The notes below the pieces were generated by a model. It worked only from the letters and a program-made list of their open reading frames with translations. It ran no database searches and was not told where the DNA came from. This document shows, in pieces, positions 10,727-44,542 of a DNA stretch of 64,000 bases (the first letter of the stretch is position 1; every line of letters begins with the position of its first letter). A program made the position numbers and the translations under genes. The stretch lies in IMG/VR virus record IMGVR_UViG_3300045970_000046, positions 11,120 to 75,119 of that record; one strand, 5' to 3'. The stretch comes from a virus.

Positions 10727-11604
10727 TCCGGAAGATTACCAACAGCGAAGTAAATCAATTTGCCTTTATGACGGCTGTAGACATTGGCCTTAATCATACA
10801 GCCCCAAAGGTCTACCCTATTCCTCGTGGTGGTATTCCGGCAGCCTATGCGGTTAAGACGCATATGTCAGGTATGACGGTTGTAGATAGTCCTGAAGAGG
10901 CCACTATCTTTATCGACGACCTTATCGACTCTGGGGCTACGCAGGATAAGTACGCCGCGCAGTATCCGGGTAAGCCATTCTACGCATTACTAGATAAACG
11001 AACACCGTCATGGAAGCAGGTGTGGATTGTCTGGCCTTGGGAAGAGACGGCTGAGTCTTCAATTGAGGATAATATTCTCCGACTACTTGAGTATGTTGGA
11101 GAGGACGTTAGTCGTGAAGGTCTTAAGGAGACTCCTAAACGTGTTGCTAAGGCGTGGAGGGAGTGGTGCTCTGGTTACTTCCAGAAGCCGGAAGATATCT
11201 TAAAAACCTTTATCGACGGAGCTGATGGTTGTGACGAGATGGTAATTCAGAAGGACATTCCCTTCTACTCGCACTGTGAACACCATCTAGCTCCGTTCTT
11301 CGGAACCGTAACTATCGCCTATATCCCGAGCGGTAAGATCGTAGGTCTGTCTAAGCTGGCTAGGTTGTCTGACATCTACGCCAAGCGGTTACAGGTTCAG
11401 GAACGGTATACCAATCAGATCGCCAACGCCCTAATGGATAATCTACAGCCTAAGGGTGTCGGAGTAGTCGTTAGGGCGCGCCACCTCTGCATCGAGTCCC
11501 GAGGTGTGGACAAGCAGGGTCACTACACAGTCACCAGTGCGTTACGCGGAGTAATGCGTAGCCTTCCGGAGGCTAGGGCCGAGTTTCTCTCCCTAGCGAG
11601 ATAG
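10723..11604 (+). CDS. folE: type I phosphoribosyltransferase - GTP cyclohydrolase I fusion
   Basis: N-terminal IPRGG, IDDLIDSGAT, WIVWPWE; C-terminal REGLKETPKRV, CEHH, GLSKL, RLQVQE, HLC..RG. Confidence 0.92.
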   Translation: MIRKITNSEVNQFAFMTAVDIGLNHTAPKVYPIPRGGIPAAYAVKTHMSGMTVVDSPEEATIFIDDLIDSGATQDKYAAQYPGKPFYALLDKRTPSWKQVWIVWPWEETAESSIEDNILRLLEYVGEDVSREGLKETPKRVAKAWREWCSGYFQKPEDILKTFIDGADGCDEMVIQKDIPFYSHCEHHLAPFFGTVTIAYIPSGKIVGLSKLARLSDIYAKRLQVQERYTNQIANALMDNLQPKGVGVVVRARHLCIESRGVDKQGHYTVTSALRGVMRSLPEARAEFLSLAR

Positions 11605-25202: not shown

Positions 25203-28124
25203 TTAGACAAGCTCACCATATTCGTCTACGACGTTATTTAGATGATCGCTGTCGTTCCGGTAGTAACGATCATCATAGTTTACAGCACGTAAGGTCGTCG
25301 TGTAATTATCTTTTGGATCCTTTTCCGAAACCAAGAAGGCTTTTTCACGTGAACTAATATTGTCTACGATATGATAGACAGCCCTAGCATATAGGTCTTG
25401 ATTTAAAGCTAGCGGTAACCGAGGAGCATGGTCTAGAAATACACTGCTTTCGGTCGAACCGTTACTAGCAACGAAACTCTCAATAGAACCATCGATATGT
25501 TGGATAAAGATTGTATACGTATGACCCGCAAGTAGCGTTACGGTCTGGGATAATTCTACTTCTAGTACGTTCTGGCCGATAACCTCACCGTCCTGTGTTC
25601 CAGTACGAGTATTATCGGCTACGAGGATTCTATCTTGTACAACAAGGATCTCGGCTTCTTGTGTAGCTTCAAATTCAACGGAAACGTTTTGGTATTGGAT
25701 CCTATTCCAGGCCCTTCTAGCAAGAAGATAAGCATGTAATTTACTGCGGATACCAAGACCTTCGATCTTACGTGGATTTATAGAGCCGTATTGTGGAATA
25801 CGGTATGTTAGAGGGGCCTCATCCTCAGGATCAACATAAGTTAGTTCAACACCGTCATAATTCTCGAGTGTACCGAAAGATATAGTCCGTGTTTCTGAAC
25901 CAGGAAGCTTATTACGGTGGTTGAATAGTAGGATACTATCGTTTGTCTGTTTTTCAAACGATAGCATTATTAAGCTACCTCTCCGGTAAGCCATACAGAA
26001 TACTGCCGTGGCTATAACCGTTATCATCTCTTCAAAAGACTCATTATCCTGATCGAACGCATGACCGAATTCAGATGCGTGGTATGTACCGAAATAAGGC
26101 TCAATTAGAGCTATAGTCTCGTATATATTCGATACATCTAGTTCACTTATAGCCCTACGACCAATATGCAGATCTAAACAGGCAGCACAGATCATATCTG
26201 CTACATTCTGTGTAGGAGATAGGGTAGTTGTGAAAGTATTCGTTGATCCTATACGAGTAGGTAGCTTCCTCGTAGTTAACATATTGATCTTACGCTCTTT
26301 AACACTCGTTGCCGAAAGAGTCGCGTATGTTGACACATAGGCTGTAGTCACATCCCCAAAATCTACCGTAGCTGGAACTTCAACCAACGAATAAAGATCA
26401 CGCCATTTAACCGTATCTACGACAGAAGTAGATCCCGTCGTTATCCGTTCATGGGCCGTATCGTTAACTGTAGTACGCCTAACACGAATTTGAACCCTAT
26501 GTCCAAAGAGCGAAGTTCCTACAATAGGGATATACATCGAAATAGCACATTGGGATCTTGTAGAGGCCGAACCAATTAATGTTGAAGTACGGAGAATAGT
26601 ATCCGTAAGGATTGGTTCGTCGGCGTTATCTAAAGGTGTAAGCTCTACTTCGACATCTACCGCTAAACGTCGTTGATGATTCTCTCTATTCGTATAATAT
26701 ATACCGGATGGAGCAATAAAGTTTAACTGATAGGCTGTGGCTGTTTTATCATCGATAGTCACCGCCTTTATCCAGTTTGGTCCTACAGAACTGATAACTG
26801 GACTAAGGTAACCAGTCTTACCGGGAATACTAGCCCAACCTGGATTAATTGAATTAGGTGAATCTAGAACTATAGAGTCATAACTAACGGCTAGAATCGT
26901 ATAGGTACCGTTTAGATTTATACCTCCTGATCCAATAGTCGTGTTAAAGCATTCAAGTACACCGTTAGATCCTATGGTCGTCTGTAAACTAACTTCATCG
27001 TATTCGTAATAGTTAGTCTGGAGTAGAGTTTCAAAAGCTCCACTAATTACCGGATAATCTTGAGTATTATAGGGGTAGCTACAGATAATAGCGTTAGGCG
27101 TACGGGCTAGTACCGTATATCCATAATCGAAGCACACGAAGCTCCGAACGTTACTAAACGCCGCACTAATCTGTAGTATGTCGCCCCCGTTAAGTGGAGG
27201 AGCGTCGTTATTTGGGAAGTGGACTGTAATAGGCCAATCCATAAAATCCGCCGTAAAATAGATATACGTGCCGGCTGTCGGTGGATTGATAATCACGTTT
27301 GATATATAAACCGACTGGCCAGCTACAAAGAGAGCGGCGAAATCTTCTTCCGGAGCCCCTATTAAATCTAGTTGTCCGGCTGCAGAAAATTGGACGTTAG
27401 CTATACCTCTAAAGACATTCGAGTTCTCAACTACTAGTTCCTGACCGTTAACAGACGAGTAGCGTTGTGTTGTATAGAGTGGTTCACCGATTAAGGACCC
27501 GGTTAATTGGTCTGGTTCAGAGCTATTAGGCTGCTTACCCGGACCGTAGATTTCAGCGGACAGACCTGTTATATCCGTGATTAATGTACTACCGTCTTTA
27601 ATATCACCAATCTCGTAAGAACCACGACCGATACATAGGTACGAAAATTCTACTTCCTGGTTATTAATAAATCTAGAACGCGGTACAGATATTAAATCTG
27701 GAGTACACCGTACAGTACCTAAGATATCCGGTATACGACCGTAAAGGCGCTCTCTATTCTGTCTACCCGATAGATCGTTTGTTGAAGAACGAGGGATCCT
27801 TTCCTTGTCCGGTTTAAATAGAATAGCCATCGTAATAACGGCTGCGATAGCTATGATAGATATGACAAGGGCGGTCACACCCATGTCGGCCGGATAGATA
27901 ACAACGATAAACGAACCTTCTAGTGTCTTCAGGTGCTCTGTAGAGGCTTCGTCCTTGGGAGTAACATCATGGGTATTGGCCACATGGTTATGGTAGATCC
28001 GGCCACCCTTTGGAAAAGACTCGTAATGCTCTTGTAAAAAATCTACAAGACTTTCATGTTCGTATGCAATCCACGAACTAGGTTCAAACGGATTCTCCGC
28101 TAATAGGATAGTTTTTAAGGACAT
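25203..28124 (-). CDS. central tail tip / lambda gpJ-like protein
   Basis: RIPDI.G.V...PDL, YDGVEL.Y.DP, AVNYD.RYY; follows NlpC/P60. Confidence 0.85.
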   Translation of the reverse strand: MSLKTILLAENPFEPSSWIAYEHESLVDFLQEHYESFPKGGRIYHNHVANTHDVTPKDEASTEHLKTLEGSFIVVIYPADMGVTALVISIIAIAAVITMAILFKPDKERIPRSSTNDLSGRQNRERLYGRIPDILGTVRCTPDLISVPRSRFINNQEVEFSYLCIGRGSYEIGDIKDGSTLITDITGLSAEIYGPGKQPNSSEPDQLTGSLIGEPLYTTQRYSSVNGQELVVENSNVFRGIANVQFSAAGQLDLIGAPEEDFAALFVAGQSVYISNVIINPPTAGTYIYFTADFMDWPITVHFPNNDAPPLNGGDILQISAAFSNVRSFVCFDYGYTVLARTPNAIICSYPYNTQDYPVISGAFETLLQTNYYEYDEVSLQTTIGSNGVLECFNTTIGSGGINLNGTYTILAVSYDSIVLDSPNSINPGWASIPGKTGYLSPVISSVGPNWIKAVTIDDKTATAYQLNFIAPSGIYYTNRENHQRRLAVDVEVELTPLDNADEPILTDTILRTSTLIGSASTRSQCAISMYIPIVGTSLFGHRVQIRVRRTTVNDTAHERITTGSTSVVDTVKWRDLYSLVEVPATVDFGDVTTAYVSTYATLSATSVKERKINMLTTRKLPTRIGSTNTFTTTLSPTQNVADMICAACLDLHIGRRAISELDVSNIYETIALIEPYFGTYHASEFGHAFDQDNESFEEMITVIATAVFCMAYRRGSLIMLSFEKQTNDSILLFNHRNKLPGSETRTISFGTLENYDGVELTYVDPEDEAPLTYRIPQYGSINPRKIEGLGIRSKLHAYLLARRAWNRIQYQNVSVEFEATQEAEILVVQDRILVADNTRTGTQDGEVIGQNVLEVELSQTVTLLAGHTYTIFIQHIDGSIESFVASNGSTESSVFLDHAPRLPLALNQDLYARAVYHIVDNISSREKAFLVSEKDPKDNYTTTLRAVNYDDRYYRNDSDHLNNVVDEYGELV

Positions 28125-29005: not shown

Positions 29006-30322
29006 TTAACCCGGGAGTAAACCAGGAAGCTGATTATTAATCAGGAAGTTCAAGGCGTCAATAGTAGCTTGGTCTGTAGTACCATTCAGGACTATAGCAG
29101 CGTATTCGCTAATAGCCTTACGTGTCTGGAAAACTTCCATTGTTGCCTGAATCGTAATATACTGCCCTATCTTACTTGCAACCTGAACACTCCCTGGAAG
29201 GAAACGAGCCGTACATTCAGAAGGAGTGGAAGAATCTAGTATTAGATCAACCTGGAACGGTAGAGAACAATCTCGAAGTCTACCGTAGAGTAACCAGAAA
29301 ATTTTATAGTCTGTGGGATTTAGCTTCCATTTAGCCGTTACAATAGACGAGGAATTTTGGATACCGGGACTATACCGACTTAGACCAATTCCATATTCGA
29401 TACTGATAACTTCGTCGTCTTTATCGGTAACGGTATATCCGTCCTGCAGTGGAACAAGGTATAGCTTCCGTGCCGGAGAATCCGTAGCTACTGAAGCATG
29501 ACCCGAAGCTGAACCACCTAGACCAACAGGCCCGTAGGTTCGAATATCGTCTTTAGTGGAAGCATGACCCGCGGCTGTACCTGTAAGGTCTACGGTACGA
29601 GATGTATGAGGTAAGGCCGTAGCTCCGGCATGACCTCCGGCGGTACCTCCCAAAGGAACAGGACCGGTAGTCTCTCCGGTTACATCCGCATGTCCGCCAG
29701 ACGTACCCCCTAGTAGAACGTCGGTCTGTAGCCCTGTGGCCACAGCACCCGCGTGACCAGAAGCTACCCCTGAAAGTGGAATACTGCTTGGGTTCGTCCC
29801 GAAATAACCGGTAGGTACAATTTGAATGGCAGCTGTACCTCCGTCTGTACCTACGAAGTGGATAGGTGCTAGTTTAAGTGAAACCGTTGAATTATCAGTG
29901 CTAGTAAACGAGAGTAATGTACCAGAGGTATCTAGTACATCGGCCGTAGCCGTTATATCTACTACTGTACTATGACCGGAGGCTGTACCGGATAGCCGTG
30001 TAGGTACAGTATACGAGAGTACGGACGTTAAAGCACCGCGACCACCAGCGGTACCGGCTAGTGAAGTAGGCCCTGTACTCGTCACACCGGCTGTTCCGGA
30101 ACCATGACCGGCAGACACACCACCTAATGACGTCGCTGTTGGAAGTTGAGTTGTTACCGTAGGACTAGATACAGTCGCCTGTCCGGAAGCGGTCCCGGAA
30201 AGCGGTATACGTATAGATTCTACCGTCACGTCATTAACAGTAATGGCTCCAGATCCGGGTACTACCCGTAAGGATAGAGTTGCATTACCTAGCGGTAACG
30301 TGAGGGTAGTTATAACCTTCAT
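29006..30322 (-). CDS. repeat stalk protein fused to a C-terminal Dit/gpM-like domain
   Basis: about nine xxL(S/G)G(T/V/S)(A/S)xGH repeats; C-terminal domain resembles ORF 37800-38162. Confidence 0.75.
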   Translation of the reverse strand: MKVITTLTLPLGNATLSLRVVPGSGAITVNDVTVESIRIPLSGTASGQATVSSPTVTTQLPTATSLGGVSAGHGSGTAGVTSTGPTSLAGTAGGRGALTSVLSYTVPTRLSGTASGHSTVVDITATADVLDTSGTLLSFTSTDNSTVSLKLAPIHFVGTDGGTAAIQIVPTGYFGTNPSSIPLSGVASGHAGAVATGLQTDVLLGGTSGGHADVTGETTGPVPLGGTAGGHAGATALPHTSRTVDLTGTAAGHASTKDDIRTYGPVGLGGSASGHASVATDSPARKLYLVPLQDGYTVTDKDDEVISIEYGIGLSRYSPGIQNSSSIVTAKWKLNPTDYKIFWLLYGRLRDCSLPFQVDLILDSSTPSECTARFLPGSVQVASKIGQYITIQATMEVFQTRKAISEYAAIVLNGTTDQATIDALNFLINNQLPGLLPG

Positions 30323-31941
30323 GGAGTAGCCGGAAGTGTAAGTGTATCTACTACAACACCGTTAACTAGAACTTCCACCTGACCACCTGTCGGAGAAGTG
30401 GCGTCAAGCTGCAACTGTAGGGGACGAGTCAGAGAATTCACAGTTTGAATATCCAGACCGGTGTCAGGGTTTAACGGTGCATTCAATGATATGGTACCAC
30501 CGTCTACCACAATACAATGCTGATTTGAAACCACCCCTACCTGAGAATCAACATCGGCCAGGTAGTCTCTAGTTCCAACCAGACCACCTACAGTTCTGGC
30601 TACTACGCGTACCTGCCAGTAATCGTCACCCCATGAGGTTAATTGATAGGCGTTATCGGTCCATCTGGAAACAGGTGGACCCTGATATACGCGTGTACCG
30701 TTAAGCCATAGCTCCACTTGGTTTACTGTATCGGAAGAACAGAAAGCTCCGAGGTCAACACTTACAGTACCACGAACTTTTATATGAAGCAACCCTTCGG
30801 AATGCGTATCTTCGATCCCAATATCGTTATGAGCAACATTGTACCAGTCATCTGTATGCGTCTCCCCACGCCCCTTGAGGCGTAGATACGGAAAGACTTT
30901 ATTGCTATTTCCTGGGAGCGTTGATTCAGCCTTCAGTACGGCGAGTTCTGCGTCAACTACACCGACCCCTGCGGCAGTATTGTAAAACATATCTACTTTC
31001 CATCCCTTTTTAGGTCTGGTAGCTGTCGAGATTAGTATATTTCTAACCTGTTCATTTGTTAGTGAGGGATTTTTCGCCCACACAAGTTGAGCAACACCAC
31101 CAACCACAGAGGCGATATTAATCAGATTTGGGTTCCAAAAACCTACTGTTCCAGGAAAGGGAAACTTACCGTTTTCGTGAATAGCCGAAATTCCCATATG
31201 GATCTGAGAGGCCAGTATGTCTACACGAGGTCCGTACTGGCCTCGGTAGGTGGATCCGGGATGCAGCATACTAAAGACACACCGGGCCTCATCGTCAATC
31301 CTAACTCCTCCAACACATAGAACGTGCGGGGCATCACTAGGGCTGTAGGCGGTAGCTGTTGGATTAGCTATAAATGTTTCATCGTCTCCAATATAAGAAA
31401 CGACTAGGCATCCAGCCGACCACGCATTGGCAACGGCAAGGGCTACAGCCGAGCCGGTAACGGTAGGACCAGCCGGGGCTGTTGGATGGACGGTGACGAT
31501 TACACGAGCGCCTGATGCAACGAGAAAATCTATCCCAGCTGCCATCGCCGAGGCACTTACACCCATGGCGAGCTGAATCCCATCTACTGCCGTCGCTAGA
31601 GTAGCTTCCGGGGCAACACCGTATAACCGTCCGGTTCCACCCTTACCTACAAGAGTAACAGCCGGATTGATAGAGTAGCTACCTCCACCACGGCCACTAT
31701 TGATATTAGTCCCGCCGGTGGAGATATTCCGAGCAGCTATAACCTTACCTGTTAGTTCAGGGGTGTTGGGAAAGAAGTTAGGGTAGGATCCAGCCTCGCC
31801 AGGATATTCAGCACATATAAGTCCAATAGGAAAGGTTGCCGCTCCCGTACCTATTGTCCACGCCTCGTATACATGGGACCGCTGGAACGTATGCTGCCTA
31901 CCAAACAAGGTGCTCTGATATGGGAGCTTATACCGGATCAT
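30319..31941 (-). CDS. catalytically degenerate S8 subtilase
   Basis: YGVAPEA, GPRVDILA, GVAQLVW.KNP.LT.EQVR.IL..TA kept; D, H and S motifs lost; start MIRYK at 31941 after GAAGGAGGAG. Confidence 0.8.
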   Translation of the reverse strand: MIRYKLPYQSTLFGRQHTFQRSHVYEAWTIGTGAATFPIGLICAEYPGEAGSYPNFFPNTPELTGKVIAARNISTGGTNINSGRGGGSYSINPAVTLVGKGGTGRLYGVAPEATLATAVDGIQLAMGVSASAMAAGIDFLVASGARVIVTVHPTAPAGPTVTGSAVALAVANAWSAGCLVVSYIGDDETFIANPTATAYSPSDAPHVLCVGGVRIDDEARCVFSMLHPGSTYRGQYGPRVDILASQIHMGISAIHENGKFPFPGTVGFWNPNLINIASVVGGVAQLVWAKNPSLTNEQVRNILISTATRPKKGWKVDMFYNTAAGVGVVDAELAVLKAESTLPGNSNKVFPYLRLKGRGETHTDDWYNVAHNDIGIEDTHSEGLLHIKVRGTVSVDLGAFCSSDTVNQVELWLNGTRVYQGPPVSRWTDNAYQLTSWGDDYWQVRVVARTVGGLVGTRDYLADVDSQVGVVSNQHCIVVDGGTISLNAPLNPDTGLDIQTVNSLTRPLQLQLDATSPTGGQVEVLVNGVVVDTLTLPATP

Positions 31942-34354
31942 AAACTCCTCCTTCAATGTTACCGGAGATATCAATCCCGTAGAATTGTAGCTTTCCCGAC
32001 TGGGGCGTAAGCGGAGCAAGATACGTGCTCCACGCTCCAGAACCCCACCGGTACCTAATTGTTACAGGAGCATTCTCACTAACAGACGACAGTATGATAG
32101 TACCACGGGTGGCGGTAGGCCACGAAACCGTGGTAAGTGGAGCAGCAGCTGCAGAGGTGTGACCAATAACGTCGACATACTCCTGCTCGACGGTAAGCGT
32201 AGAGGTTCTAGCAACTAATTTTAGAAGATTCCCAGCTAGAAGTCCGGAGTTCAAAGGGATTAGCGAGTCCCATGTAGTTCTAGCCCCTCCTTGGTAAACC
32301 ATTGTAGATCCGGCCCATAATTCCAAGGAGGTAATAGGATCCGAAGAATAGGCTATGAGCTCTACATATATAGTTCCATGGAGATGAACGGTAGGAACCC
32401 CCGAGCTCCAAACTACAGCATCACTGATAAGAATGGGAATATACCGCCCCATGATATCTCTTTTAAAGAAATTGCAGTAAGGAAAGATATGTCCTGCAAA
32501 CTCCGGGACTAATGACAGCGCCTTGCTAACGGCCTTTCCTGCATTCCAAATACCCGGTAACTCAGGAAATAATGTTGTAAAATCTGGATTCTGAGGCTTA
32601 TCCCAAGTATCTTTAGCTATCTGACAGATCTGAAGCCCCGTTAAATCCATGTTAGCTGAACCGATTAGGGCACAAATTCCCACTGAAAAGGGGGTAGCAG
32701 AAGACGTACCGTTAAAATAGGTGTAGTCCACTAGAGCGTTGTTTGGATTAGAAGGAGTGAACCACTCGAAATCGCTATCTATAGCTCCGGACGTTGCGAT
32801 CCCAGTTCCAGCCTGGTGGTAGACAGAGGCTAGAATCTGATGTCCATGAGCCACCGCATTAACCTTAGGACCGTAATTTGAATAGCAAGCACGCTCGTCA
32901 AGCCGGGTGGTCTCTAGACATCCAACAGACAAAAATCCATATTCCTTACAAAGATTTCCGGGACTTCCCGACATGCCCGTAGAGTAATTACACGCGGCAA
33001 ATAGGGCTGCGTCGCCGCGATCTCGGAGCAGGTCGAATGTTGTCCTATACTCCGCCAATAATCCACCGGTAGAAGTGTACGCAGAGCCCCAGGAATTATT
33101 CGAAATTTTAGCCCCCAACAGGGAACCCATTATCAGGCCCTCTGTTAGAGCCACAATGGTGACATAAGTTTCTCCCGGGGCTAGTTCCGTCCGCCAAGAG
33201 AAACCATTACAGCTAAACAAGGAGCATTCAGGAGCGACGCCAACAGGCCCGGCCTTTAGAGGTGAGGATCCTACGTAGTCCGGTTTGTTAGCGTTAGCCA
33301 AAATGACACCGGAGCAGCAGGTCCCGTGAGTTGCGGATCCAGCCGAATTATCCGTGCTGGGCCCGAATACCCCCTTACCGGGATTAAAACGGATTACTTT
33401 CTTTCCGGCAAACGCAGGCCACTGCTCTGCCGCAGTTGGGTAAAGGGGGCCTCCAGGGACTCCTAGGGTCGGATCACTAGCGGGACCCGTAAATGTAGAG
33501 TTAATTATTAATCCAGAATCATTTACCGTGACTAAGAAATCCGGGTGCCCCATCGTATACTTCCACGCCGAAAAGACATCCGACCGTAAGTGAGAATACT
33601 GTCTGGGAAGAGCCGCATCGCTGGCCCCATGGTATTTGCGTTTGGAAGTTTGATAGTTAGGGAGCCTAACATTAGTCGTAGTAGCCGAAGCGTGGGCTGT
33701 ATCTACAGATGTTCTTGGCCCAGAGGAGGAAGCCCGCAGCGAAATATAACGGCCTTGTTTGGTACCTTCTACAGAAATTGTAGATGAGGGAACAGGCCCT
33801 GCACTCGGTTGCACCATACTCCATATACCTAACCCGTGGTTGAGTGCGTCAGGTCCTAACAAAATATCTGTAGATAGCGGAGGACCTACAGGCGTAGTCC
33901 ACCACGTACTCAGAGTATCATAGTCATAACTAAACTCGTAATTATGGGCTAATAACAGAACAAGGCTGTTCTGCCCTAAAGTCGTAATTGAAGGAACAAC
34001 TAGATCCGTGTATACAGTGATGTCGGGACTTGTGGCCGTAGCGAGCGAACCCACAACCTCTATCGGGGCTGTGGGATCACAATCTCTATAGGCCGCCATA
34101 ATAATATAGCCTGTACTATGGGCTATGTCGACGTTTTCATCAGTTAATACTTTGTAGCAAATAGCGAAGAAAGTTGAAGTTCCTCCCGCAGAATTTGAAG
34201 CTCCTGGGACTAGGGTCCAACCTGTAGGAGCCGAGCTAGTTCCGGTGATGAAGGCTATAACTACATCACCAGCTTCGAGACCCGAGGGTACACCTTCCTT
34301 AGTGGGATCATCCCCACGGTACTTCCCTGTACTTACAAGATATGGGATTCTCAT
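31928..34354 (-). CDS. S8 subtilisin-like serine protease with tail-protein N-domain
   Basis: VNDSG, HGTCCSG, GVAPE, NNSWG, AACN, GTSSATP. Confidence 0.9.
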   Translation of the reverse strand: MRIPYLVSTGKYRGDDPTKEGVPSGLEAGDVVIAFITGTSSAPTGWTLVPGASNSAGGTSTFFAICYKVLTDENVDIAHSTGYIIMAAYRDCDPTAPIEVVGSLATATSPDITVYTDLVVPSITTLGQNSLVLLLAHNYEFSYDYDTLSTWWTTPVGPPLSTDILLGPDALNHGLGIWSMVQPSAGPVPSSTISVEGTKQGRYISLRASSSGPRTSVDTAHASATTTNVRLPNYQTSKRKYHGASDAALPRQYSHLRSDVFSAWKYTMGHPDFLVTVNDSGLIINSTFTGPASDPTLGVPGGPLYPTAAEQWPAFAGKKVIRFNPGKGVFGPSTDNSAGSATHGTCCSGVILANANKPDYVGSSPLKAGPVGVAPECSLFSCNGFSWRTELAPGETYVTIVALTEGLIMGSLLGAKISNNSWGSAYTSTGGLLAEYRTTFDLLRDRGDAALFAACNYSTGMSGSPGNLCKEYGFLSVGCLETTRLDERACYSNYGPKVNAVAHGHQILASVYHQAGTGIATSGAIDSDFEWFTPSNPNNALVDYTYFNGTSSATPFSVGICALIGSANMDLTGLQICQIAKDTWDKPQNPDFTTLFPELPGIWNAGKAVSKALSLVPEFAGHIFPYCNFFKRDIMGRYIPILISDAVVWSSGVPTVHLHGTIYVELIAYSSDPITSLELWAGSTMVYQGGARTTWDSLIPLNSGLLAGNLLKLVARTSTLTVEQEYVDVIGHTSAAAAPLTTVSWPTATRGTIILSSVSENAPVTIRYRWGSGAWSTYLAPLTPQSGKLQFYGIDISGNIEGGVYDPV

Positions 34355-34752: not shown

Positions 34753-34991
34753 TATTGTGTCTCCACTAATGACTCGAACCAGACATTGGCCACAGCAGGG
34801 TGGGCTTCATAACGAAGGATTGCCGTGGATACGTTTGCGGTACCGACAAAAACCTCTAACACCATCGCGTTCGGATACATATTTAGCGTACGTCCCCCAC
34901 ACTCCTGAACTACACATAGACCTAGATCCTGGTCCCAATACTTCAGTCGTACCATCAATCTATCTAGTAGTATAGGGAGGGCCATATCCAT
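34752..34991 (-). CDS. hypothetical protein
   Basis: 79 aa, tightly packed in the operon. Confidence 0.55.
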   Translation of the reverse strand: MDMALPILLDRLMVRLKYWDQDLGLCVVQECGGRTLNMYPNAMVLEVFVGTANVSTAILRYEAHPAVANVWFESLVETQ

Positions 34992-34993
34992 AC

Positions 34994-35989
34994 CTAGTAT
35001 GATAAGCCACCTAGTTTAATGTCGTAAATTAGTCCGGATCCGAAGAGGTATAAGAACGTGCTCGCCGGAGTAGGCCAAGCACCAGCCGTATTTAAGGTTA
35101 CGTTTTGAATCCCATCTATGAAAGATAAAGTAGCACTCGTTCCCAGTCGGAATTCTATCCTGTATAGTTTATTTACCAACGGAGTTGGAACTAGATTAAT
35201 TTGTTCTAAACCACCAGCTACACTAATACCAGACCAAGTCCCTAGCTCAGAGTCGTACCCAGCAGAGAATCCGTTTGTATTGGATAATAGAGTCTGCAAG
35301 CTTGCGGCGGTAGTATAAGTGCTTCCAGACAGCAAGGAAAATAGTCCGGAGCCATTGATACTATTCGTGGTCCTAGCGGCGCACCTAAATTCGAGATACC
35401 AAGGAGCGTCCTGCATTCCGGTAATACTAGCCTTAATAACGTCCGCGCCAGCCATGGTGACTATACCAGCCGAAACCGTAGGGGCACCTGCTACAATAGA
35501 GAACTGACCTAGAGTATTGGATGCAAAATCTTCATAGAGGACAACGCTGGGAGTGGTTTGAATAGTTAGAGTACGAGGACTCGCGAATAAGGCCGAAATA
35601 TTACCAGCCGCGTCTTTGGCCCATGGGTAGAACGTTACGGATCCACGACCCTCCGCAATCCAGGAAGTTGGCACAGTAGCTACCCACTTAGGATCTGCGG
35701 GGGACGGTTTAGTAGCGGATTCTGTAATTAAGTATCCTGCTATACCGCCAGCATGCGTTGCGTTAAGATTGTTAATCAGAATACGAGCCCCGAGATGGGC
35801 TGTGTCATTGGCGTAGAGATTAAACGCATTCATTGAGGGAAGAGTATCTTCCACCGTAAAGGACCTACCGGAGACTACCACCGTACCGTTTACTTTCATA
35901 TCAACAGACTGAGCACCCCCGGCCATAGCTACATCCGGAATGGACCAATTTCCTGCCCCGTCAGCCGTAGTGGACCCAAGTAAAGCCAT
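34994..35989 (-). CDS. Ig-like / lectin-like appendage protein
   Basis: LLGSTTADGAGNWS half-Ig; GYLITESATKP...WAKDAAGN Ig module; C-terminal beta-sandwich. Confidence 0.7.
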   Translation of the reverse strand: MALLGSTTADGAGNWSIPDVAMAGGAQSVDMKVNGTVVVSGRSFTVEDTLPSMNAFNLYANDTAHLGARILINNLNATHAGGIAGYLITESATKPSPADPKWVATVPTSWIAEGRGSVTFYPWAKDAAGNISALFASPRTLTIQTTPSVVLYEDFASNTLGQFSIVAGAPTVSAGIVTMAGADVIKASITGMQDAPWYLEFRCAARTTNSINGSGLFSLLSGSTYTTAASLQTLLSNTNGFSAGYDSELGTWSGISVAGGLEQINLVPTPLVNKLYRIEFRLGTSATLSFIDGIQNVTLNTAGAWPTPASTFLYLFGSGLIYDIKLGGLSY

Positions 35990-35991
35990 AG

Positions 35992-36993
35992 CTATGTCCC
36001 CGTATCGTAAATAGTAACAGTTGATCCGGCCGCCGCGGTACCCGAGAACGTAACGGAGGCCGATGTAGTCTGACCAGCGGTCGGTGTTGCAAGTGTGTTC
36101 GAAACCGAACCACCTGAAATACTGACGGTTGAGGTTGCCCCCGCAATCCCAGCTCCGCTTCCCGCGATAGGCGCCGGAGCCCCCGTCTGGGTTCCGCTGC
36201 CACCAGAGCCAAGGCCTCCAGCCGAACCACCAAGAGATACTGTAGTAGCTGGTGCACTGGTAGTATCGGCCTGACCACCGGCAGCCCCGGAGAGGGCCGA
36301 GTCTACGATAACCGCACCGGCCGAATGTATCTCAATCGTCGCGTTAGGAACGACGACGCCGCTGAATGTAACCAAGGCCCCAACAGTAGACCCTTCAACC
36401 GGGAATTCCATAGACGCATCGGAGCCCGTCGATAGAGTCCCAAAAGATCCAGCCTGACCAGCGGCGGTACCACCCTGTGGACCAGAAGTTGCCGCGGTTC
36501 CCTGTCCACCGGCGTGCCCCACGGAGGTCCCAGAGAGAGGAACAACCTGAGACAACGGGGCCGTAGCACCGGCCCGACCACCAGCCGTAGCTTGTAACGG
36601 AGTTTGACCCGGTGTTGTTGTAGATATCGGACCTAGTTCGTTACCGTGGCCACCCGCTGTACCACCTAGGCCAGTAGAAACACCAAGAGCGGCGGTGGTT
36701 CCCCCTAAACCACCTGCCGCGCCTGTTGTTTTCCGTTCAGTGGATAGAATCCCACTTACATCTGCGTGACCCGACGTTGTTCCACCAGCTCCACCAGTGT
36801 CTAGTTGAGCACTAACGGTGGCCCTACCCGCAGCCGTTGCTTCTAGTATAAGTCCGAAGGGTAAAGGTGATTCCCAATAACCTGAACTGTTGGCCTGAAC
36901 AGGAGTAAGAGCCTGGCCGGCGACGGTAGGCGTCACAAAAGCGTTTGGAGTGGTTGAACCCCAAACCTTTACTCCACCAATCTGAACAGGCAC
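35992..36993 (-). CDS. Gly/Thr/Ala repeat protein with partial Ig domains
   Basis: about ten LxGT(A/S)xG(H/Q/R)A repeats; ends SGTAAAGSTVTIYD; GGAGG RBS with GTG start. Confidence 0.75.
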   Translation of the reverse strand: MPVQIGGVKVWGSTTPNAFVTPTVAGQALTPVQANSSGYWESPLPFGLILEATAAGRATVSAQLDTGGAGGTTSGHADVSGILSTERKTTGAAGGLGGTTAALGVSTGLGGTAGGHGNELGPISTTTPGQTPLQATAGGRAGATAPLSQVVPLSGTSVGHAGGQGTAATSGPQGGTAAGQAGSFGTLSTGSDASMEFPVEGSTVGALVTFSGVVVPNATIEIHSAGAVIVDSALSGAAGGQADTTSAPATTVSLGGSAGGLGSGGSGTQTGAPAPIAGSGAGIAGATSTVSISGGSVSNTLATPTAGQTTSASVTFSGTAAAGSTVTIYDTGT

Positions 36994-37008: not shown

Positions 37009-37188
37009 CTACTTCGTACCGGTAGAACTAGCCGCGCGGGCCGTACCAGATAACGGAGTAACTTTTCCGGTAGTCTTCTCCTTCTGACCTGCGTTACTGG
37101 CCCCCTTAGCATCACCGCTTAACTTAGTGGGAGGAGTTTGAACACATGAACAAAGGACGACTACTAGAGCCACTAGAAGGATCTTCAT
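37009..37188 (-). CDS. 59-aa lipoprotein carrying two stalk repeats (not in ORF track)
   Basis: MKILLVALVVVLCSC lipobox, then TKLSGDAKGAS and TPLSGTARAAS. Confidence 0.65.
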   Translation of the reverse strand: MKILLVALVVVLCSCVQTPPTKLSGDAKGASNAGQKEKTTGKVTPLSGTARAASSTGTK

Positions 37189-37799: not shown

Positions 37800-38162
37800 T
37801 TAGGAAACGATAGCTAAAGTAGCCTTAACAAGATACTGATCTCCGTGAATCTCCGCCAACTTCATCGTACCTTTTACGAATTGTACAGTATGCTCAGATA
37901 TTGTAGGATCGTCTACCAATAAATTGATCCGAAAAGCTGATGCCGTAAACTGGACTAACCTATAAAACGCACGAATATAATCGTATTCTTGAGCATTACA
38001 ATACCATGTAACGTCAATATGAGGCAATGTTTTATTTATAGGCTTAATTGAAGCCCTCCGGAATTTAGAGAAGCCTCCTTCAACAGCGAACTTTATTACA
38101 TCAGCCTCAAATGTAATCCTATAACCTGATTCTTCCGGTGTAAGGTCTAGGGCTATAGACAT
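37800..38162 (-). CDS. distal tail (Dit / gpM-like) protein
   Basis: directly after the tape measure; GY...GG.S.FRR...V.W...F.I.L. Confidence 0.7.
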   Translation of the reverse strand: MSIALDLTPEESGYRITFEADVIKFAVEGGFSKFRRASIKPINKTLPHIDVTWYCNAQEYDYIRAFYRLVQFTASAFRINLLVDDPTISEHTVQFVKGTMKLAEIHGDQYLVKATLAIVS

Positions 38163-41100
38163 TAGCGCTTCCGTCCAGTCGTAGTATGCGACGAGAGGGC
38201 CTTACTGACTCGACTATTAGCGTTTATAATATCTCTGGCCACAATGCTAGGTGTATGCGTCTGGACGGCGGCCAGGGCCTCTTCGCGGGCGATAATCCGA
38301 ATATCGTTCCCATTACGTTCAACACTGATATTGGAAGGTGTGTAATTCTCAATTTTCACGTTAACTTGGGTTCCGCTGGCGCCCGCCTTACCGGGGGATC
38401 CCCCACCACCCGCACCAGAGGACCCCCTATTTAGAGCCTCTAGCATTGGACGGTAGCGCCGGGTAGCCTCGGCATTAACAACATACTCCTGCCCATGGAC
38501 TAGTCCAGCTACTTCACCTGTAGGACCATCACCGGTGTAGCCACCGACCATATAACCGGTAGAGATAAGATCACGCTTTACCGTAGAAGTTGTATCTAGA
38601 GCTTGGTAAGTAGACTTATTCTGGAATGTCGAATTAGTAGACGAGCTATACGACCTGAACATCTCGGGTGTAATGGTCTTGCCCTTGTTTAGATCTTCTA
38701 AGAGAGGGCGGTTCTTTTTAGTAGCGGTGGCGTTAAGTACATACTCCTGACCGTGATAGAAGCCCGCTACACTATTAACGGGACTATCACCGGTGTAACC
38801 GCCAGACTTCATTCCAGCCCCACCGATAGCTGCTGCGATAGCCGCGGTAGAGAGCATCGATGCGTCAGCCGCTAGACCAGCCGCGCCGAAGGTCGCGATA
38901 CTCACAAGAGCTGCCGGTCCTGCCCACATGGCCCCCGTTTCGGCGGCCATGGTAGCTCCGGCTGCCGTTGCGGTCGCCATACCCATAGTGGCTATAGCCC
39001 TGTTAACGAGGAATTGTAGGCCAATCTTAATTAAGGAGCTAAGTAATTCGGCTAGGATATTACGAGATATATCACCTAACGTCTTTTCTAGGTTTTCACC
39101 GAATACAATAGCTCTTGCGAACGCCGTACCAATACCATCTATTAACTGTGTGACGGGTTTCGCAAAGGTGGAGCCTAACTGACGGGCGAAGTCAGTGGTA
39201 CGTCGGCTAAGTAGGTCGATCTGTTTAAGCATACCGTCGAAGAAGGTACCTTCTCCGGACTGTATATTAGCTTCCGCTTGTAAATCGCGGAGGTCCATCT
39301 TAACACTCTGTATCCCAGATTCCACCGCTCCCCAATCCGTTTGACCAAAGATTGGAGTAGCATACGTATTTCCGGTTTCCCAGTCGCTAACCGGATTCAC
39401 GTGACCAATTACAGGGGTGTTATCTTTAATCAACTGAGCTGTAGACTTCTCTAACACTTCTTTGTTAACCTGTTCTTGGACCTTAGGCTTTTCGGCACGA
39501 CGATTAATCGTACTATAGAGACGGTCTACTTCCTGTGCTATACGCTTATACTCGGCCCTCTCTTCCTGTAGTTTATTAATACGAGACTGGGCTGCAAGCT
39601 CATTAGTTGTAGGTACGTGGCCAAGCTCCCGTTTAAGTTTAAGCTCATCCTCCATAGCTTGAAGTAAGCCCTTACGGGCTGCGGAGGACCCCTTGTAAAT
39701 ACTAATCTCGCGTTCAAGAGCGGCTTCTAATGTCTCAAGTGGGAATAGGGCTTCCTTAGAATGTTCCACATAAGCGGCGAGTAACCTGTTACGCTCTGCC
39801 ATCGTAATAAGCGTCTCTTGTGTAACAGTACCGTCAGGTTGCACAACAGGGGCGGCGACCGGCAGGGCTGCAGAGGCGTCTAATAATCCCTTAGCTTGGT
39901 CTAGGCGGATCTGAGCTGCAAAGACAGGACTCATCTGTTTCTGAATCTCTTCTAGGCCGCGCTTGTATTCTTCAATCTTGCCTTTGTCTAAAGCAAAGAT
40001 GGGTTTCTTGGCATCTTTACTGATATCGTCCTTAGTCCCCTTATTAGCGGCGTCTGTACGGGCTTTAGCCGTCTCCCGGAACTTAGAAATAAGCCCATCT
40101 AACTGGGACATTACGCCATCGGTCCAATCCCCAATACGATCACCACTGAAGGACCAAGTCTTTAACTTCTCCATATCAGCTAAGAGTTTATCGAACGAAC
40201 CCTTAGCATTATTTTCTACTTCAAACTTAACTGGAGTAATGGTTGCCGTAGTGCCAAAGAGTTTCTTAAAGATAGCACTTTGGGCTACAGAGTTTAGCCC
40301 ATCTATAAGTGTATTTATGATAGGAGCGGCTAACTGGGCTAGGCCGCTAAGAGCTTGTGAGAAGATATCCGTGAGTACACTAGGTATGCTACGGAGTAGT
40401 AGAGGAATAAGATTAGCTACATAGTCTACACTACCCAGAATACCATTCAGGATCCCCTTAAAGATTGTTATCGTCGCCTTTGTAATCCATTCAAAGAGGC
40501 TATAAATCTTACGTTCAATAAAGACGAGTAGTTTATCCCAACCGCTCAAGGCCTCTATAGGATCGATACCCTGAGGCTTATGCGACGACATACTAGATGT
40601 TACAGAAGAGGCCTGAGGAGAAGAGGCTAGTGAAGCTCCGCTGCCCGGGGCCTGTCCTTGGACTAGAGTAGATTGTACCGTCTTAGCTATTGTATTCTGA
40701 AGAGTAGAACCGCTCGTAGGACTAGTATTATCCTTGAAAACGTCAGTCTTATAACCGGCCCTCTTATTTAGATCGCGTGTAATTAAGGCGATATAAAGCT
40801 TAGTTTCATCGGCTAATTGATCGAAGACGGTAGTTAGATCCTTAGTCTTATCTAAGAGTTTTCCACCGTTAACTTTATCGGCCCGGTTAGGTCCGCCGTT
40901 ATAACCAGCTAGGGCTTTCTCTACACTACCATCGAATTTATTTAATAGCTCACGGAGGTAAGACGTACCTCCTTCGATATTATTCTTTGGAACATTTGGG
41001 TTAACACCCAAATCCGCAGCAGTCTTTGGCATCAGCTGCATTAAGCCAATCGCTCCAACAGGTGAAAGAGCGTTTGGATTATTATTAGACTCCTGCTTCA

Positions 41101-44100
41101 TTACGGCCGCTATAAGATGTACGCTTACATCGAACTGCTTAGCCGCATCGATAATATCCTTACCGTAAGGATGACTCGTCATCGAGGCGTCGTCTTTAGG
41201 ATTATAGCCCCAAGCTACTCCCTCTTCAGAACGCGGAACAACCGACGGTACCTGTAACGCGGTGGCCACAGGCTCCGGGGCGCCGAATCCGAGCTTCTGT
41301 AAGAAGGGGAACGTATCGGATACAATCTTACCGAGTGTCCTAAATACGTCACCTAGTGTAATCCCGGCTACTTCGATATTATCCCTAAAGAGGTATAGAC
41401 CTGCGGTCAAAGCCGCTAAAGCAGCTACACTAACACCTAGCGGGTTAGCGGACATAAAGCCAAGCATACCGGAACCGACGGCTCCACCGGCTGCAGCCCC
41501 CACCGCCCCTCTAGTCGCGACTCCACCAGCCGCTGTAAGCGGTGTAACGCCCCATGCCGGTAGAGCAGAAACGGCAGCACCCTGCGCTGTTTGACCAATC
41601 AGTTTAGATATACCAGAAAGGGCCGCGGGAATGGCTAATGCGGCTAGTGCGGCGGCTACCGTACCTAGACTGGCCGCTAGTTTATCGAGGTTACCGCCTA
41701 ACCAATCGATCATCGTATTAAACTTATCGGAAATCTTATAAGCTTCGTTAATCTCTCCTACGAATTTAGTAACATTCGTAGATAGGTTGTTAAAGCCTTG
41801 AGCGAACGATCTCTGAACGGTGTCGACTTCTTTATCAAGTTGACTTGTATCTGCCAAGAAAGCCTTAAACACTACCGACGAATCGATAGTTTCTTCTTCC
41901 TTACCCTTAATAAGCTGCTTCCAGTTTAGACCACCACCACGACGATTCTGTTCTTCTACGGCCTTACGAAACATCACAATAGACTTACTACCACCCTGTA
42001 GATGATCGGCTATACCCTTTAAGATTCTAGGTGTATTTTCTGAAATCGAGTTAAACTCCTGCATACGAATCTTACCCATACCTAGCATCTGACCTAACTG
42101 TAAGAGGGAACCTCTCGCAGCGTCAGCACTGGTACCTTGAATGAGTAAGGCTTTACCGACGTTCTCTACAAATTGGATGGCCGTAGCTTGTGAAGCGCCA
42201 ACGGTTAGGGAGGCCATAGAGATACGACGGTAGAGTGTAACGACGTCGTCAAACGGTTGACGAGTACGTAAAGCGACTTGGACTAGTTCTTCCTGGACAG
42301 CCGTAGCCTCTTTAACACTTGAGGTTGAAAGTCGGACGCTGTTACTGGCGTTAATCCAACCGTCAGCCGATTGCTTTAACTCACGAATCATTAGGAAGCC
42401 CGCAAACATTTCGGCCGCCATCCGGATATACCAGAGTTGGCGAACGAAATGAGCGGCAGAACTAGTGGCCTGCTGGGCGGCCCTGGCATGAGAGTTGTAT
42501 CCGGCAGTCGTCGAAGCTAATGCCCGGCCTGTTCCGTAGATCGCGTTATTATACTGCTGGGCTGTGATTGTACCTTCCCGGTATAGACGGTTAGCGGCTT
42601 CCTGGCGAGCCGTACTAACTCCCGGCGCCGGAGAATTGTACAACGAGTTCAACTTAGCCATCTCGGCATTTAAGGCTACAACGGCCTGTCGCTCTTCGAC
42701 ACGGCTCCTAACAAGTTCCCGATTAGTATTGTTGAGAGGTTGAACTGCCTGACCCGGGGCTGTTGTAGCTTCAGCGACACGGGTATAAGCCCCTTCCATC
42801 TGGACACTACGTTGATATTCCTTATGGGAGGCTACCCCCTTAGCTAGAGCGTCACCTTCCTTATTCAAGGCGGCTACTTCACGATCTAGTTGAGCAATGT
42901 AAGCGTCGATAGAGGTAGTCGTCGCCTGTATCTCGTTTGAAAGCTTACCAGTACCGCTCATTGTAGCTTGTCCGAGTTTACCAGCCGCCGTACCAGCCCT
43001 ATCGAAATCAAGGGTTAGTTGGCCTACACCAGCAGAGGCTAGTTTGGCCGCGGTAGAGATAGTCTTAACTTCGGTGGCCACAGTACCGGCGCGAGAAGCG
43101 GCCTCTTGTAGGAAACGTTCCTGCCGGGCGGAGTCTTCCAACCATGTTACGCCGGTCGACTTATCTGTAAAGTCAAGTTGACGGGTAGTAAGTTCTTCTT
43201 TAGTCTGACCCTTCAAAGCTTGCTTATCAGCACCGGGAGCCGTCAGATTAAGACTCATCTGGGCTTTAGTTTGCGCCGCGGCTAGTTCTTCAGTAGCCTT
43301 CGTCTTCTCACGTAAGGCCCGAGCTTCCGCTAGGATACGTTGTTCCTCGATCGGAGAACCGGCAAACGCCCTACGACCAACATCACGGGAAGCTAGTTCG
43401 TCCTTAATCTCCTGATTTACATCTTTGGGCTTAGTTCCAGGGATCGTCGGAGTAGTGGGTGCGAGTCTACCACCTTGTAGATTCAACGTAAGTTGTTGAA
43501 TGTTCTCGGCAGCTTCTTTAGCCTTAAGGGCAGTACCTCCTAATTGAGCTTCCATTAGAGGCATGAAGCCTAGAGACTGTTGACCTACAGTTCCAAGCTG
43601 ACGCAGCTTAACCGAAAGTATCTCAGCCTCGTCCGTCATCCGCTTAATAGCGAAGCCACGGGAATTACGGTCTACCTCTTCGTTCCAAGGAACACCACCC
43701 GTAGCGAATTCACGCTGGGGTGGGCGCATGGCGTTAGTTGTGGCTAATTCAACTTCACGTTGCCTAACAACATCTTGATAGTGTGCTTTTGTATCCGGAG
43801 GATGAACTACTTCGGGCCGGGCAAACATATCCATTTGCCCAGTAGTACCTAAATCTTTATTAGCGACCTTTAACTGTGCCAGTAGGTCTAACTGCTTCTT
43901 AGTCTTATCCCCAAGCTGGACTAACTGGTTAGAGCACTCAGTAATAAGTGTCCTTGGTTCAACCTTAAGTAATTCCGCACGGATCTGATTTATCTTAGCT
44001 TCGTACTCCGCCATTCCTTTGTCTTTAGGAATAGGCGGAGGCTCGTCCCAAGGATCGGGAAGCTTAGGCCGAGGAACATTCGGTAGGGGTAGTTGAACAG

Positions 44101-44542
44101 GCGGTGGTACAATGACCGGGGCAGGCGCCATCTTAGCACCGAACATCTCACCCTGTTCACCCACAGCCCCCTTAAGAGTAGGGGCGGCCATCGAAGCCAG
44201 CACAGATTTAAACTGTGTGGCTAACCCCATCACACTTTCAAATTCTTTCGCCAGGCCTTCCAGGTCCTTAGTGATCTCTCCGGGGGCCTTACCCCGTAGG
44301 GAATTTAATTGATCCCGTAGTTTTCCAACCGCCGTCGAACTGGTACCTACTTGACTTGTAAGGTCGGTAAACTGTTTTCCCAGTTCCGAACCGGGCTTAA
44401 ACGAAAGGTTTTTTAGATCTCCCTGCAACTCCGATATAACCGACTGGGCCTTTTCGGCAGACTTAGCCACATCCTCGAAACTCCGCGCAACTACACGCGA
44501 ACCAGTTTCGGATATGGATATAAGAATTGTTTCGTCGGCCAT
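38162..44542 (-). CDS. tape measure protein with SLT lytic transglycosylase domain
   Basis: LLQLGQ...EFNSI.EN.P tape-measure motif; QES...SPVGAIGLMQLMP..A, YNGGP; duplicated GGYTGD...HGQEYV. Confidence 0.95.
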   Translation of the reverse strand: MADETILISISETGSRVVARSFEDVAKSAEKAQSVISELQGDLKNLSFKPGSELGKQFTDLTSQVGTSSTAVGKLRDQLNSLRGKAPGEITKDLEGLAKEFESVMGLATQFKSVLASMAAPTLKGAVGEQGEMFGAKMAPAPVIVPPPVQLPLPNVPRPKLPDPWDEPPPIPKDKGMAEYEAKINQIRAELLKVEPRTLITECSNQLVQLGDKTKKQLDLLAQLKVANKDLGTTGQMDMFARPEVVHPPDTKAHYQDVVRQREVELATTNAMRPPQREFATGGVPWNEEVDRNSRGFAIKRMTDEAEILSVKLRQLGTVGQQSLGFMPLMEAQLGGTALKAKEAAENIQQLTLNLQGGRLAPTTPTIPGTKPKDVNQEIKDELASRDVGRRAFAGSPIEEQRILAEARALREKTKATEELAAAQTKAQMSLNLTAPGADKQALKGQTKEELTTRQLDFTDKSTGVTWLEDSARQERFLQEAASRAGTVATEVKTISTAAKLASAGVGQLTLDFDRAGTAAGKLGQATMSGTGKLSNEIQATTTSIDAYIAQLDREVAALNKEGDALAKGVASHKEYQRSVQMEGAYTRVAEATTAPGQAVQPLNNTNRELVRSRVEERQAVVALNAEMAKLNSLYNSPAPGVSTARQEAANRLYREGTITAQQYNNAIYGTGRALASTTAGYNSHARAAQQATSSAAHFVRQLWYIRMAAEMFAGFLMIRELKQSADGWINASNSVRLSTSSVKEATAVQEELVQVALRTRQPFDDVVTLYRRISMASLTVGASQATAIQFVENVGKALLIQGTSADAARGSLLQLGQMLGMGKIRMQEFNSISENTPRILKGIADHLQGGSKSIVMFRKAVEEQNRRGGGLNWKQLIKGKEEETIDSSVVFKAFLADTSQLDKEVDTVQRSFAQGFNNLSTNVTKFVGEINEAYKISDKFNTMIDWLGGNLDKLAASLGTVAAALAALAIPAALSGISKLIGQTAQGAAVSALPAWGVTPLTAAGGVATRGAVGAAAGGAVGSGMLGFMSANPLGVSVAALAALTAGLYLFRDNIEVAGITLGDVFRTLGKIVSDTFPFLQKLGFGAPEPVATALQVPSVVPRSEEGVAWGYNPKDDASMTSHPYGKDIIDAAKQFDVSVHLIAAVMKQESNNNPNALSPVGAIGLMQLMPKTAADLGVNPNVPKNNIEGGTSYLRELLNKFDGSVEKALAGYNGGPNRADKVNGGKLLDKTKDLTTVFDQLADETKLYIALITRDLNKRAGYKTDVFKDNTSPTSGSTLQNTIAKTVQSTLVQGQAPGSGASLASSPQASSVTSSMSSHKPQGIDPIEALSGWDKLLVFIERKIYSLFEWITKATITIFKGILNGILGSVDYVANLIPLLLRSIPSVLTDIFSQALSGLAQLAAPIINTLIDGLNSVAQSAIFKKLFGTTATITPVKFEVENNAKGSFDKLLADMEKLKTWSFSGDRIGDWTDGVMSQLDGLISKFRETAKARTDAANKGTKDDISKDAKKPIFALDKGKIEEYKRGLEEIQKQMSPVFAAQIRLDQAKGLLDASAALPVAAPVVQPDGTVTQETLITMAERNRLLAAYVEHSKEALFPLETLEAALEREISIYKGSSAARKGLLQAMEDELKLKRELGHVPTTNELAAQSRINKLQEERAEYKRIAQEVDRLYSTINRRAEKPKVQEQVNKEVLEKSTAQLIKDNTPVIGHVNPVSDWETGNTYATPIFGQTDWGAVESGIQSVKMDLRDLQAEANIQSGEGTFFDGMLKQIDLLSRRTTDFARQLGSTFAKPVTQLIDGIGTAFARAIVFGENLEKTLGDISRNILAELLSSLIKIGLQFLVNRAIATMGMATATAAGATMAAETGAMWAGPAALVSIATFGAAGLAADASMLSTAAIAAAIGGAGMKSGGYTGDSPVNSVAGFYHGQEYVLNATATKKNRPLLEDLNKGKTITPEMFRSYSSSTNSTFQNKSTYQALDTTSTVKRDLISTGYMVGGYTGDGPTGEVAGLVHGQEYVVNAEATRRYRPMLEALNRGSSGAGGGGSPGKAGASGTQVNVKIENYTPSNISVERNGNDIRIIAREEALAAVQTHTPSIVARDIINANSRVSKALSSHTTTGRKR

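Follow-up and report, generated by a model that had tools for sequence, protein, structure and literature searches.

A predicted Big_13-like Ig domain divided between two adjacent tail-module genes of a phage, with an apparent 11-base templated insertion at the break

The DNA analyzed here (the window) is a stretch of 64,000 bases, positions 11,120 to 75,119 of the IMG/VR virus record IMGVR_UViG_3300045970_000046, and makes up most of that 75,119-base record, which CheckV rates as complete. Its minus strand carries a tail module that runs from an SLT-domain tape measure protein (38162-44542) through a 120-residue Dit-like protein and a 195-residue Gp80-like fiber protein to a small lipoprotein ORF, the two genes under study (encoding P0001 and P0002), proteins of 79 and 132 residues, and two S8-peptidase-like proteins. 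The module ends with a 438-residue stalk protein and lambda-type tip proteins up to a TipJ homolog (25203-28124). Genes of the operon are tightly packed, and their stops and starts overlap or nearly touch. The small ORF (37009-37188, minus strand; 59 residues) is flanked by the Gp80-like gene and P0001; its product, with a lipoprotein-type signal (MKILLVALVVVLCSC...), terminates in an LSGTA.A motif that recurs in P0001 and in the 438-residue protein.

P0001 comprises 333 residues and is encoded at 35992-36993 on the minus strand, with a GTG start, GGAGG 5 bases upstream of it, and a TAG stop. From the N terminus, it consists of a beta domain, Gly/Thr-rich repeats of about 22 residues, a Gly/Ser linker, and, at the end, two initial strands of a Big_13 Ig domain; we describe it as a "stalk" of Gly/Thr-rich repeats with small beta domains on either side. 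Nothing in Pfam or PHROG matched this protein. P0002 (34994-35989, minus strand) comprises 331 residues between an ATG start and a TAG stop, and the exact protein is recorded on two contigs. Its residues 50 to 146, approximately (35552-35842, minus strand), form a single copy of a repeat domain that is very common in bacteria (...GYLITES.T.P...YPWAKDAAGNIS) and for which Pfam gave no match. This domain returned 1693 representative matches and occurs in up to 26 copies per giant bacterial protein; many of the bacterial proteins that contain it also carry multiheme cytochrome or Big_13 domains. The C-terminal part (residues 147 to 331, approximately; 34997-35551, minus strand) is predicted to be a concanavalin-A-like, or LamG-type, jelly roll, on the basis of ESM Atlas structure matches with TM values of 0.67 to 0.78 to PF06439/Laminin_G clusters and phage clusters. 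The jelly roll is likely to be a glycan-binding head, and P0002 as a whole looks like such a head because it combines Ig strands, the repeat domain, and the ConA-like jelly roll.

A preliminary description of this DNA had placed the end of P0001 and the start of P0002 2 nucleotides apart and had treated the two as separate genes. The spacing is borne out by the junction letters on the minus strand, which read ATT TAC GAT ACG GGG ACA TAG CT ATG GCT TTA CTT GGG. P0001 ends in ...VTIYDTGT (in full, ...VTFSGTAAAGSTVTIYDTGT), and its TAG stop occupies 35992-35994 (minus strand). Two bases farther on lies the ATG of P0002 (35987-35989, minus strand), the N terminus of which is MALLGSTTADGAGNWS (MALLGSTTADGAGNWSIP), or ALLGSTTADGAGNWSIPDVAMAGGAQSVDMK once the Met has been removed. 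The P0002 frame is shifted by -1 (+2) relative to that of P0001. It remains open for 114 codons upstream of the ATG, where its translation is junk rich in W, R, and C, and the third frame at the junction is also nonsense; the coding frame therefore truly switches within a few bases of the stop. In Logan contigs from two pond-metagenome runs (two samples from two studies), the region from 35400 to 36600 was identical over 1201 bases and contained no indel. One of these contigs is 60.6 kb in length at a depth of 132, and the other is 40.9 kb at a depth of 16; their assembly was separate from that of the IMG/VR record, although the record may derive from these same samples. The cut allele was the sole allele seen in them. 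At this contig level, which hides minor alleles, no indel that would restore a single ORF was present in either run, and the two cistrons stand as such in the DNA. Given the identical junction in the contigs of two runs, it is not a one-off assembly error.

The preliminary description had also proposed that the two halves, when joined, match one bacterial Ig repeat. Comparison with P0044 upheld this, since the two halves correspond to neighboring stretches of the same uninterrupted Big_13 repeats. P0044, which came from proteins fetched for other reasons, is a bacterial protein of 1546 residues with eight Big_13 repeats (PF19077; 545 bits). The tail of P0001 (TFSGTAAAGSTVTIYD) matched the first part of six of these repeats (best E value, 3e-5; 75% identity), and the head of P0002 (LLGSTTADGAGNWS...) matched the adjoining next part of the same six (best E value, 2e-8). 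In five of the six repeats, exactly three residues (GAT) separate the two matches. The joined P0001-P0002 sequence aligned across the break to six P0044 repeats, with E values from 2e-11 to 1e-7. Pfam was queried with the read-through sequence (P0048), in which an X was placed at the break. This gave matches spanning the break to Big_6 (E value, 7.7e-4; 20.1 bits against a gathering cutoff of 27.6) and to Big_13 (PF19077; E value, 0.016; 16.1 bits against a gathering cutoff of 27), and neither half by itself matched an Ig family in Pfam. The score thus lies below the Big_13 gathering threshold, while collinear similarity to bona fide members extends over the whole domain. An AlphaFold2 model of the read-through, made from the single sequence, had a pLDDT of 35.7, too low to be informative; it did place strands on either side of the break. 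On three lines of evidence, all read from sequence, we assign the P0001 tail and the P0002 head to one predicted Ig domain. An Ig-domain paralog within the N terminus of P0001 was ruled out, there being no similarity between that region and the Ig domain.

By homology, the cut falls in the surface loop between the predicted second strand (...VTIYD) and third strand (LLGSTTA...). The first part of the Big_13-like domain (35995-36084, minus strand; P0001 residues 304 to 333) covers strands A and B and the three-residue loop TGT, and the second part (35843-35983, minus strand; P0002 residues 3 to 49) covers strands C to G; each aligns to P0044 repeats, the first to six of them. P0002 starts 2 residues ahead of strand C and has no strands A and B of the repeat, and the C terminus of P0001 is exactly this two-strand hairpin plus the loop. 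The pair therefore has the arrangement of a complementation joint, in which an Ig-like fold in one protein lacks strands and the missing strands lie at the end of the other.

Inspection of the break revealed 11 bases, TAGCTATGGCT (35984-35994, minus strand), that consist of the TAG stop, the CT spacer, and ATG GCT (Met-Ala). When they are omitted, both genes fall into one frame (...YDTGTLLG..., within ...TIYDTGTLLGSTTAD...). The resulting sequence aligned without gaps to five P0044 repeats, at best with 58.7% identity over 46 residues and an E value of 1e-13, and its loop TGT stood opposite GAT at the canonical length of 3 residues. A 1-base indel at the GGGG run was rejected as the origin of the frame change: with one base added, the sequence (...YDTGDIAMALLG...) still aligns only with a 4-residue gap. 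Ten of the 11 inserted bases are an exact copy of TAGCTATGGC, the presumed template, which lies 63 bases downstream (35922-35931, minus strand) inside the codons D-V-A-M-A; this 10-mer occurs twice in the 64-kb window, against 0.13 expected. Because the V-A-M-A encoded at the template site stands opposite the S-A-L-A conserved in contiguous repeats, the downstream copy appears to be native and the junction copy the newcomer. With 10 of 11 bases copied from so near, a short templated insertion would have provided the stop, the spacer, and the Met-Ala start at once. Moreover, since the stop and the in-frame start both lie inside the insertion, P0001 acquired no out-of-frame tail and P0002 gained Met-Ala alone. 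The junction thus has the appearance of a single short templated insertion, perhaps a recent one, which would suit a tolerated accident as well as a designed joint; the perfect 10-base identity to the template suggests a young event, perhaps not yet judged by selection.

Several other features of the junction letters were noted. Both P0001 (35992-35994) and P0002 (34994-34996) end in TAG, that of P0001 having arrived with the insertion; TAA is the stop codon in each of the five other large module genes checked. The junction of P0002 with the 79-residue gene, TAGGTATGG (34988-34996), resembles the inserted TAGCTATGG at 8 of 9 bases, probably by chance. As a recurring junction motif, TAGNTATGG was rejected; it is not enriched, with 4 occurrences in the window against 2.8 expected.

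The preliminary description had credited the downstream gene with its own ATG and a GGGA ribosome-binding site. The ATG stands; of the ribosome-binding site there remains a weak Shine-Dalgarno-like (SD-like) sequence, GGGGA (35997-36001, minus strand), located 7 bases ahead of the ATG. Some of the phage's other ribosome-binding sites look similar, with G-rich ones lying 6 to 8 bases upstream. We regard it as weak evidence, and perhaps a coincidence of the loop codons, because the same letters overlap the Thr-Gly-Thr codons of the loop and because GGGG is common in the P0001 gene (11 occurrences). A stop and a start 2 bases apart would permit termination-reinitiation coupling, which needs little of an SD sequence. 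In its layout, the junction is like other gene boundaries of the operon: the next one, from P0002 to the 79-residue gene, reads TAC TAG GT ATG and has the same stop-NN-ATG spacing. P0002 shares its Met-Ala start with about 40% of the listed starts of the phage (11 of 27). We also folded 151 bases of RNA around the site. The minimum free energy was -37.2 kcal/mol, compared with a mean of -42.5 for shuffled sequences (z, +1.36), and 187 of 200 shuffles folded at least as stably as the junction region. The region around the P0002 start is therefore without structure, which we count in favor of separate cistrons and against a frameshift.

We favor, with a probability of roughly 55%, a real gene fission into two coupled cistrons, the products of which rejoin by hairpin complementation. 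In this scheme, a single siphophage tail-appendage gene would have been cut by the 11-base templated insertion in the B-C loop of a Big_13 Ig-like domain, the insertion supplying the upstream-frame TAG, the 2-base spacer, and the downstream-frame ATG-GCT. P0001 and P0002 would be translated by coupling across the 2 bases between stop and start, with the weak SD-like GGGG 7 bases upstream. As one Ig domain is cut between two genes, the two proteins probably must rebuild it together: the C-terminal A-B hairpin of P0001 would re-form the Ig sandwich with the five N-terminal strands of P0002. The lectin-like head (Ig domain, repeat domain, and ConA-like jelly roll) thereby would be tied noncovalently to the P0001 stalk.

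Relatives of the locus were sought in several collections. Searches of IMG/VR gave no related loci for P0001, P0002, the 195-residue neighbor, or the 808-residue protease, and neither blastn nor tblastn found relatives among GenBank phages. A DNA pattern across the junction with a variable gap had no match. From JGI metagenomes, just two bacterial proteins were recovered, and these share the middle repeat domain of P0002. A homologous-protein search returned none for P0001 and none for the joined Ig region among proteins of 83 to 266 residues; in the full HMMER search with P0002 and the search of longer proteins, matches were confined to the repeat domain, which swamped both. Neither protein therefore had a relative in IMG/VR, among the phages of GenBank, in JGI metagenomes, or in the large protein sets that could speak for conservation of the cut.

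The absence of relatives that would demonstrate retention of the cut also leaves room for a serious rival, which we consider possible but on balance doubtful: a tolerated disabling mutation. Here the insertion would have broken a dispensable accessory fiber gene, P0001 would be truncated, P0002 would be poorly made or unattached, and the clean stop and start would be merely a by-product of the copied letters. A single small insertion with its template visible nearby, a copy that has not diverged from that template, and the weakness of the SD-like site all would fit such an event. So would precedent, since frameshifted side-fiber genes are established in viable phages, stf of laboratory lambda (PaPa) being an example. 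Relative to the contiguous repeats, the locus does carry the indel of a pseudogene. It shows neither decay, nor junk tails, nor loss of a start: out-of-frame junk is absent from both products, an in-frame ATG lies 2 bases past the stop in the layout found at the next gene boundary, and the downstream frame is intact over 331 codons, as are its domain motifs. The cut allele, moreover, was alone in both runs, in one of them at a depth of 132. These observations argue against a disabling mutation.

Recoding, by a -1 shift or a hop past the insertion that would make a fused protein of 660 residues beside the short one, is very improbable. Programmed frameshifting is known to add Ig-like domains to phage structural proteins (reviewed in PMC5009743), and here, as in those systems, an Ig-like domain in a phage structural module involves a change of reading frame. 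The downstream frame is indeed -1, and the GGGG run would in principle permit single-tRNA slippage. In the published systems, however, ribosomes shift at a slippery site ahead of the whole domain and the extension lacks a start codon, whereas here the frame changes within the domain, shift signals are absent, and an ATG of its own opens the downstream part. The zero frame (GAT ACG GGG ACA TAG) contains no X XXY YYZ heptamer; in it, the Gly tRNA on GGG would be the only one able to re-pair at -1, the A-site codon ACA being unable to do so. After a -1 slip at GGGG, the loop would exceed its proper length by 4 residues, and a hop would find no matching landing codon in the P0002 frame. Since there is no slippery site and, by the folding comparison above, no stable downstream RNA structure to stimulate a shift, programmed frameshifting is unlikely. 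Reading the TAG as a sense codon was likewise rejected, because in-frame read-through gives junk. A sequencing or assembly artifact in a gene that is really continuous is the least credible explanation: the genome is metagenome assembled and a 4-G run adjoins the break, but the two independent Logan contigs are identical there without an indel, and an 11-base templated insertion is unlike a homopolymer slip.

The completion of Ig-like folds by a hairpin or strand from another chain is known. In the baseplate tripod of Lactococcus phage Tuc2009, a C-terminal beta-hairpin of BppU (residues 296 to 321; 25 residues) completes a beta-sheet in domain 2 of BppA to give a composite similar to a titin Ig domain; a carbohydrate-binding module is also present in BppA (PMC4742702). 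The predicted P0001-P0002 joint shares with BppU-BppA a C-terminal two-strand hairpin of about 25 residues that would give part of an Ig-like sandwich to a neighboring accessory protein, a carbohydrate-binding-type module on that accessory protein, and a link that here, too, would be noncovalent. It differs in that the incomplete domain of Tuc2009 lies at the C terminus of BppA, so that the pieces are not collinear across the gene boundary. The pieces studied here are collinear and belong to a Big_13-like domain, and the DNA still shows the 11-base insertion from which the cut would have come. Binding in Tuc2009 was solved by crystallography, while that of P0001 to P0002 is deduced from the genes.

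In chaperone-usher pili (Fim, Pap, and Caf1), donor-strand complementation and exchange complete an Ig-like fold and chain the subunits. These pili resemble the arrangement proposed here in that the Ig-like fold is incomplete in one chain and strands come from another. In the pili, however, the donated strand is a single one (G) carried by an N-terminal extension, assembly depends on a chaperone and an usher, and identical folds are polymerized; P0001 would contribute two strands (A and B) from its C terminus, to one joint that links two unlike proteins in a virion assembled in the cytoplasm. A third comparison is with the contiguous Big_13 (PF19077) arrays of bacterial surface proteins such as P0044, to which the domain without the 11 bases is 59% identical over 46 residues and with which it shares the 3-residue loop. 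Unlike the phage domain, these arrays are encoded continuously in one giant protein. What appears to be new, in this one genome, is a predicted collinear Big_13 domain cut over two coupled cistrons, in which the mutation behind the cut can still be read.

A second candidate joint was noted in the same cassette. The genes for a 566-residue pseudoprotease (30319-32019, minus strand) and the 438-residue stalk protein (29006-30322, minus strand) overlap by ATGA at 30319-30322. The C terminus of the dead protease is ...VEVLVNGVVVDTLTLPATP, and the stalk protein begins with MKVITTLTLPLGNATLSLRVV. When the two were joined with an X, a beta-sandwich match to PF16967 (E-set like) extended across the junction with an E value of 0.003, and neither half by itself gave such a match. 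We take this junction as a weak independent pointer to split beta-sandwich joints. More tentatively, the extra tail appendage might consist of separate proteins locked together by split beta-sandwiches at no fewer than two joints (the Big_13 domain and an E-set/CBM-like domain at 30319-30322), with the P0001/P0002 joint a snapshot of how such a joint could originate in one step, through a templated insertion that places both stop and start in a surface loop.

If the halves do not reassemble, the pond phage, successful as it is, would merely carry a broken accessory gene. If they do, it would be a natural collinear split-Ig joint, in which one 11-base insertion turned a covalent link into a plug and socket. 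The pair, of about 30 and 47 residues, would then be a minimal natural tag-and-socket system for protein engineering, and for phages such insertions would be a simple route to making receptor-binding heads exchangeable.
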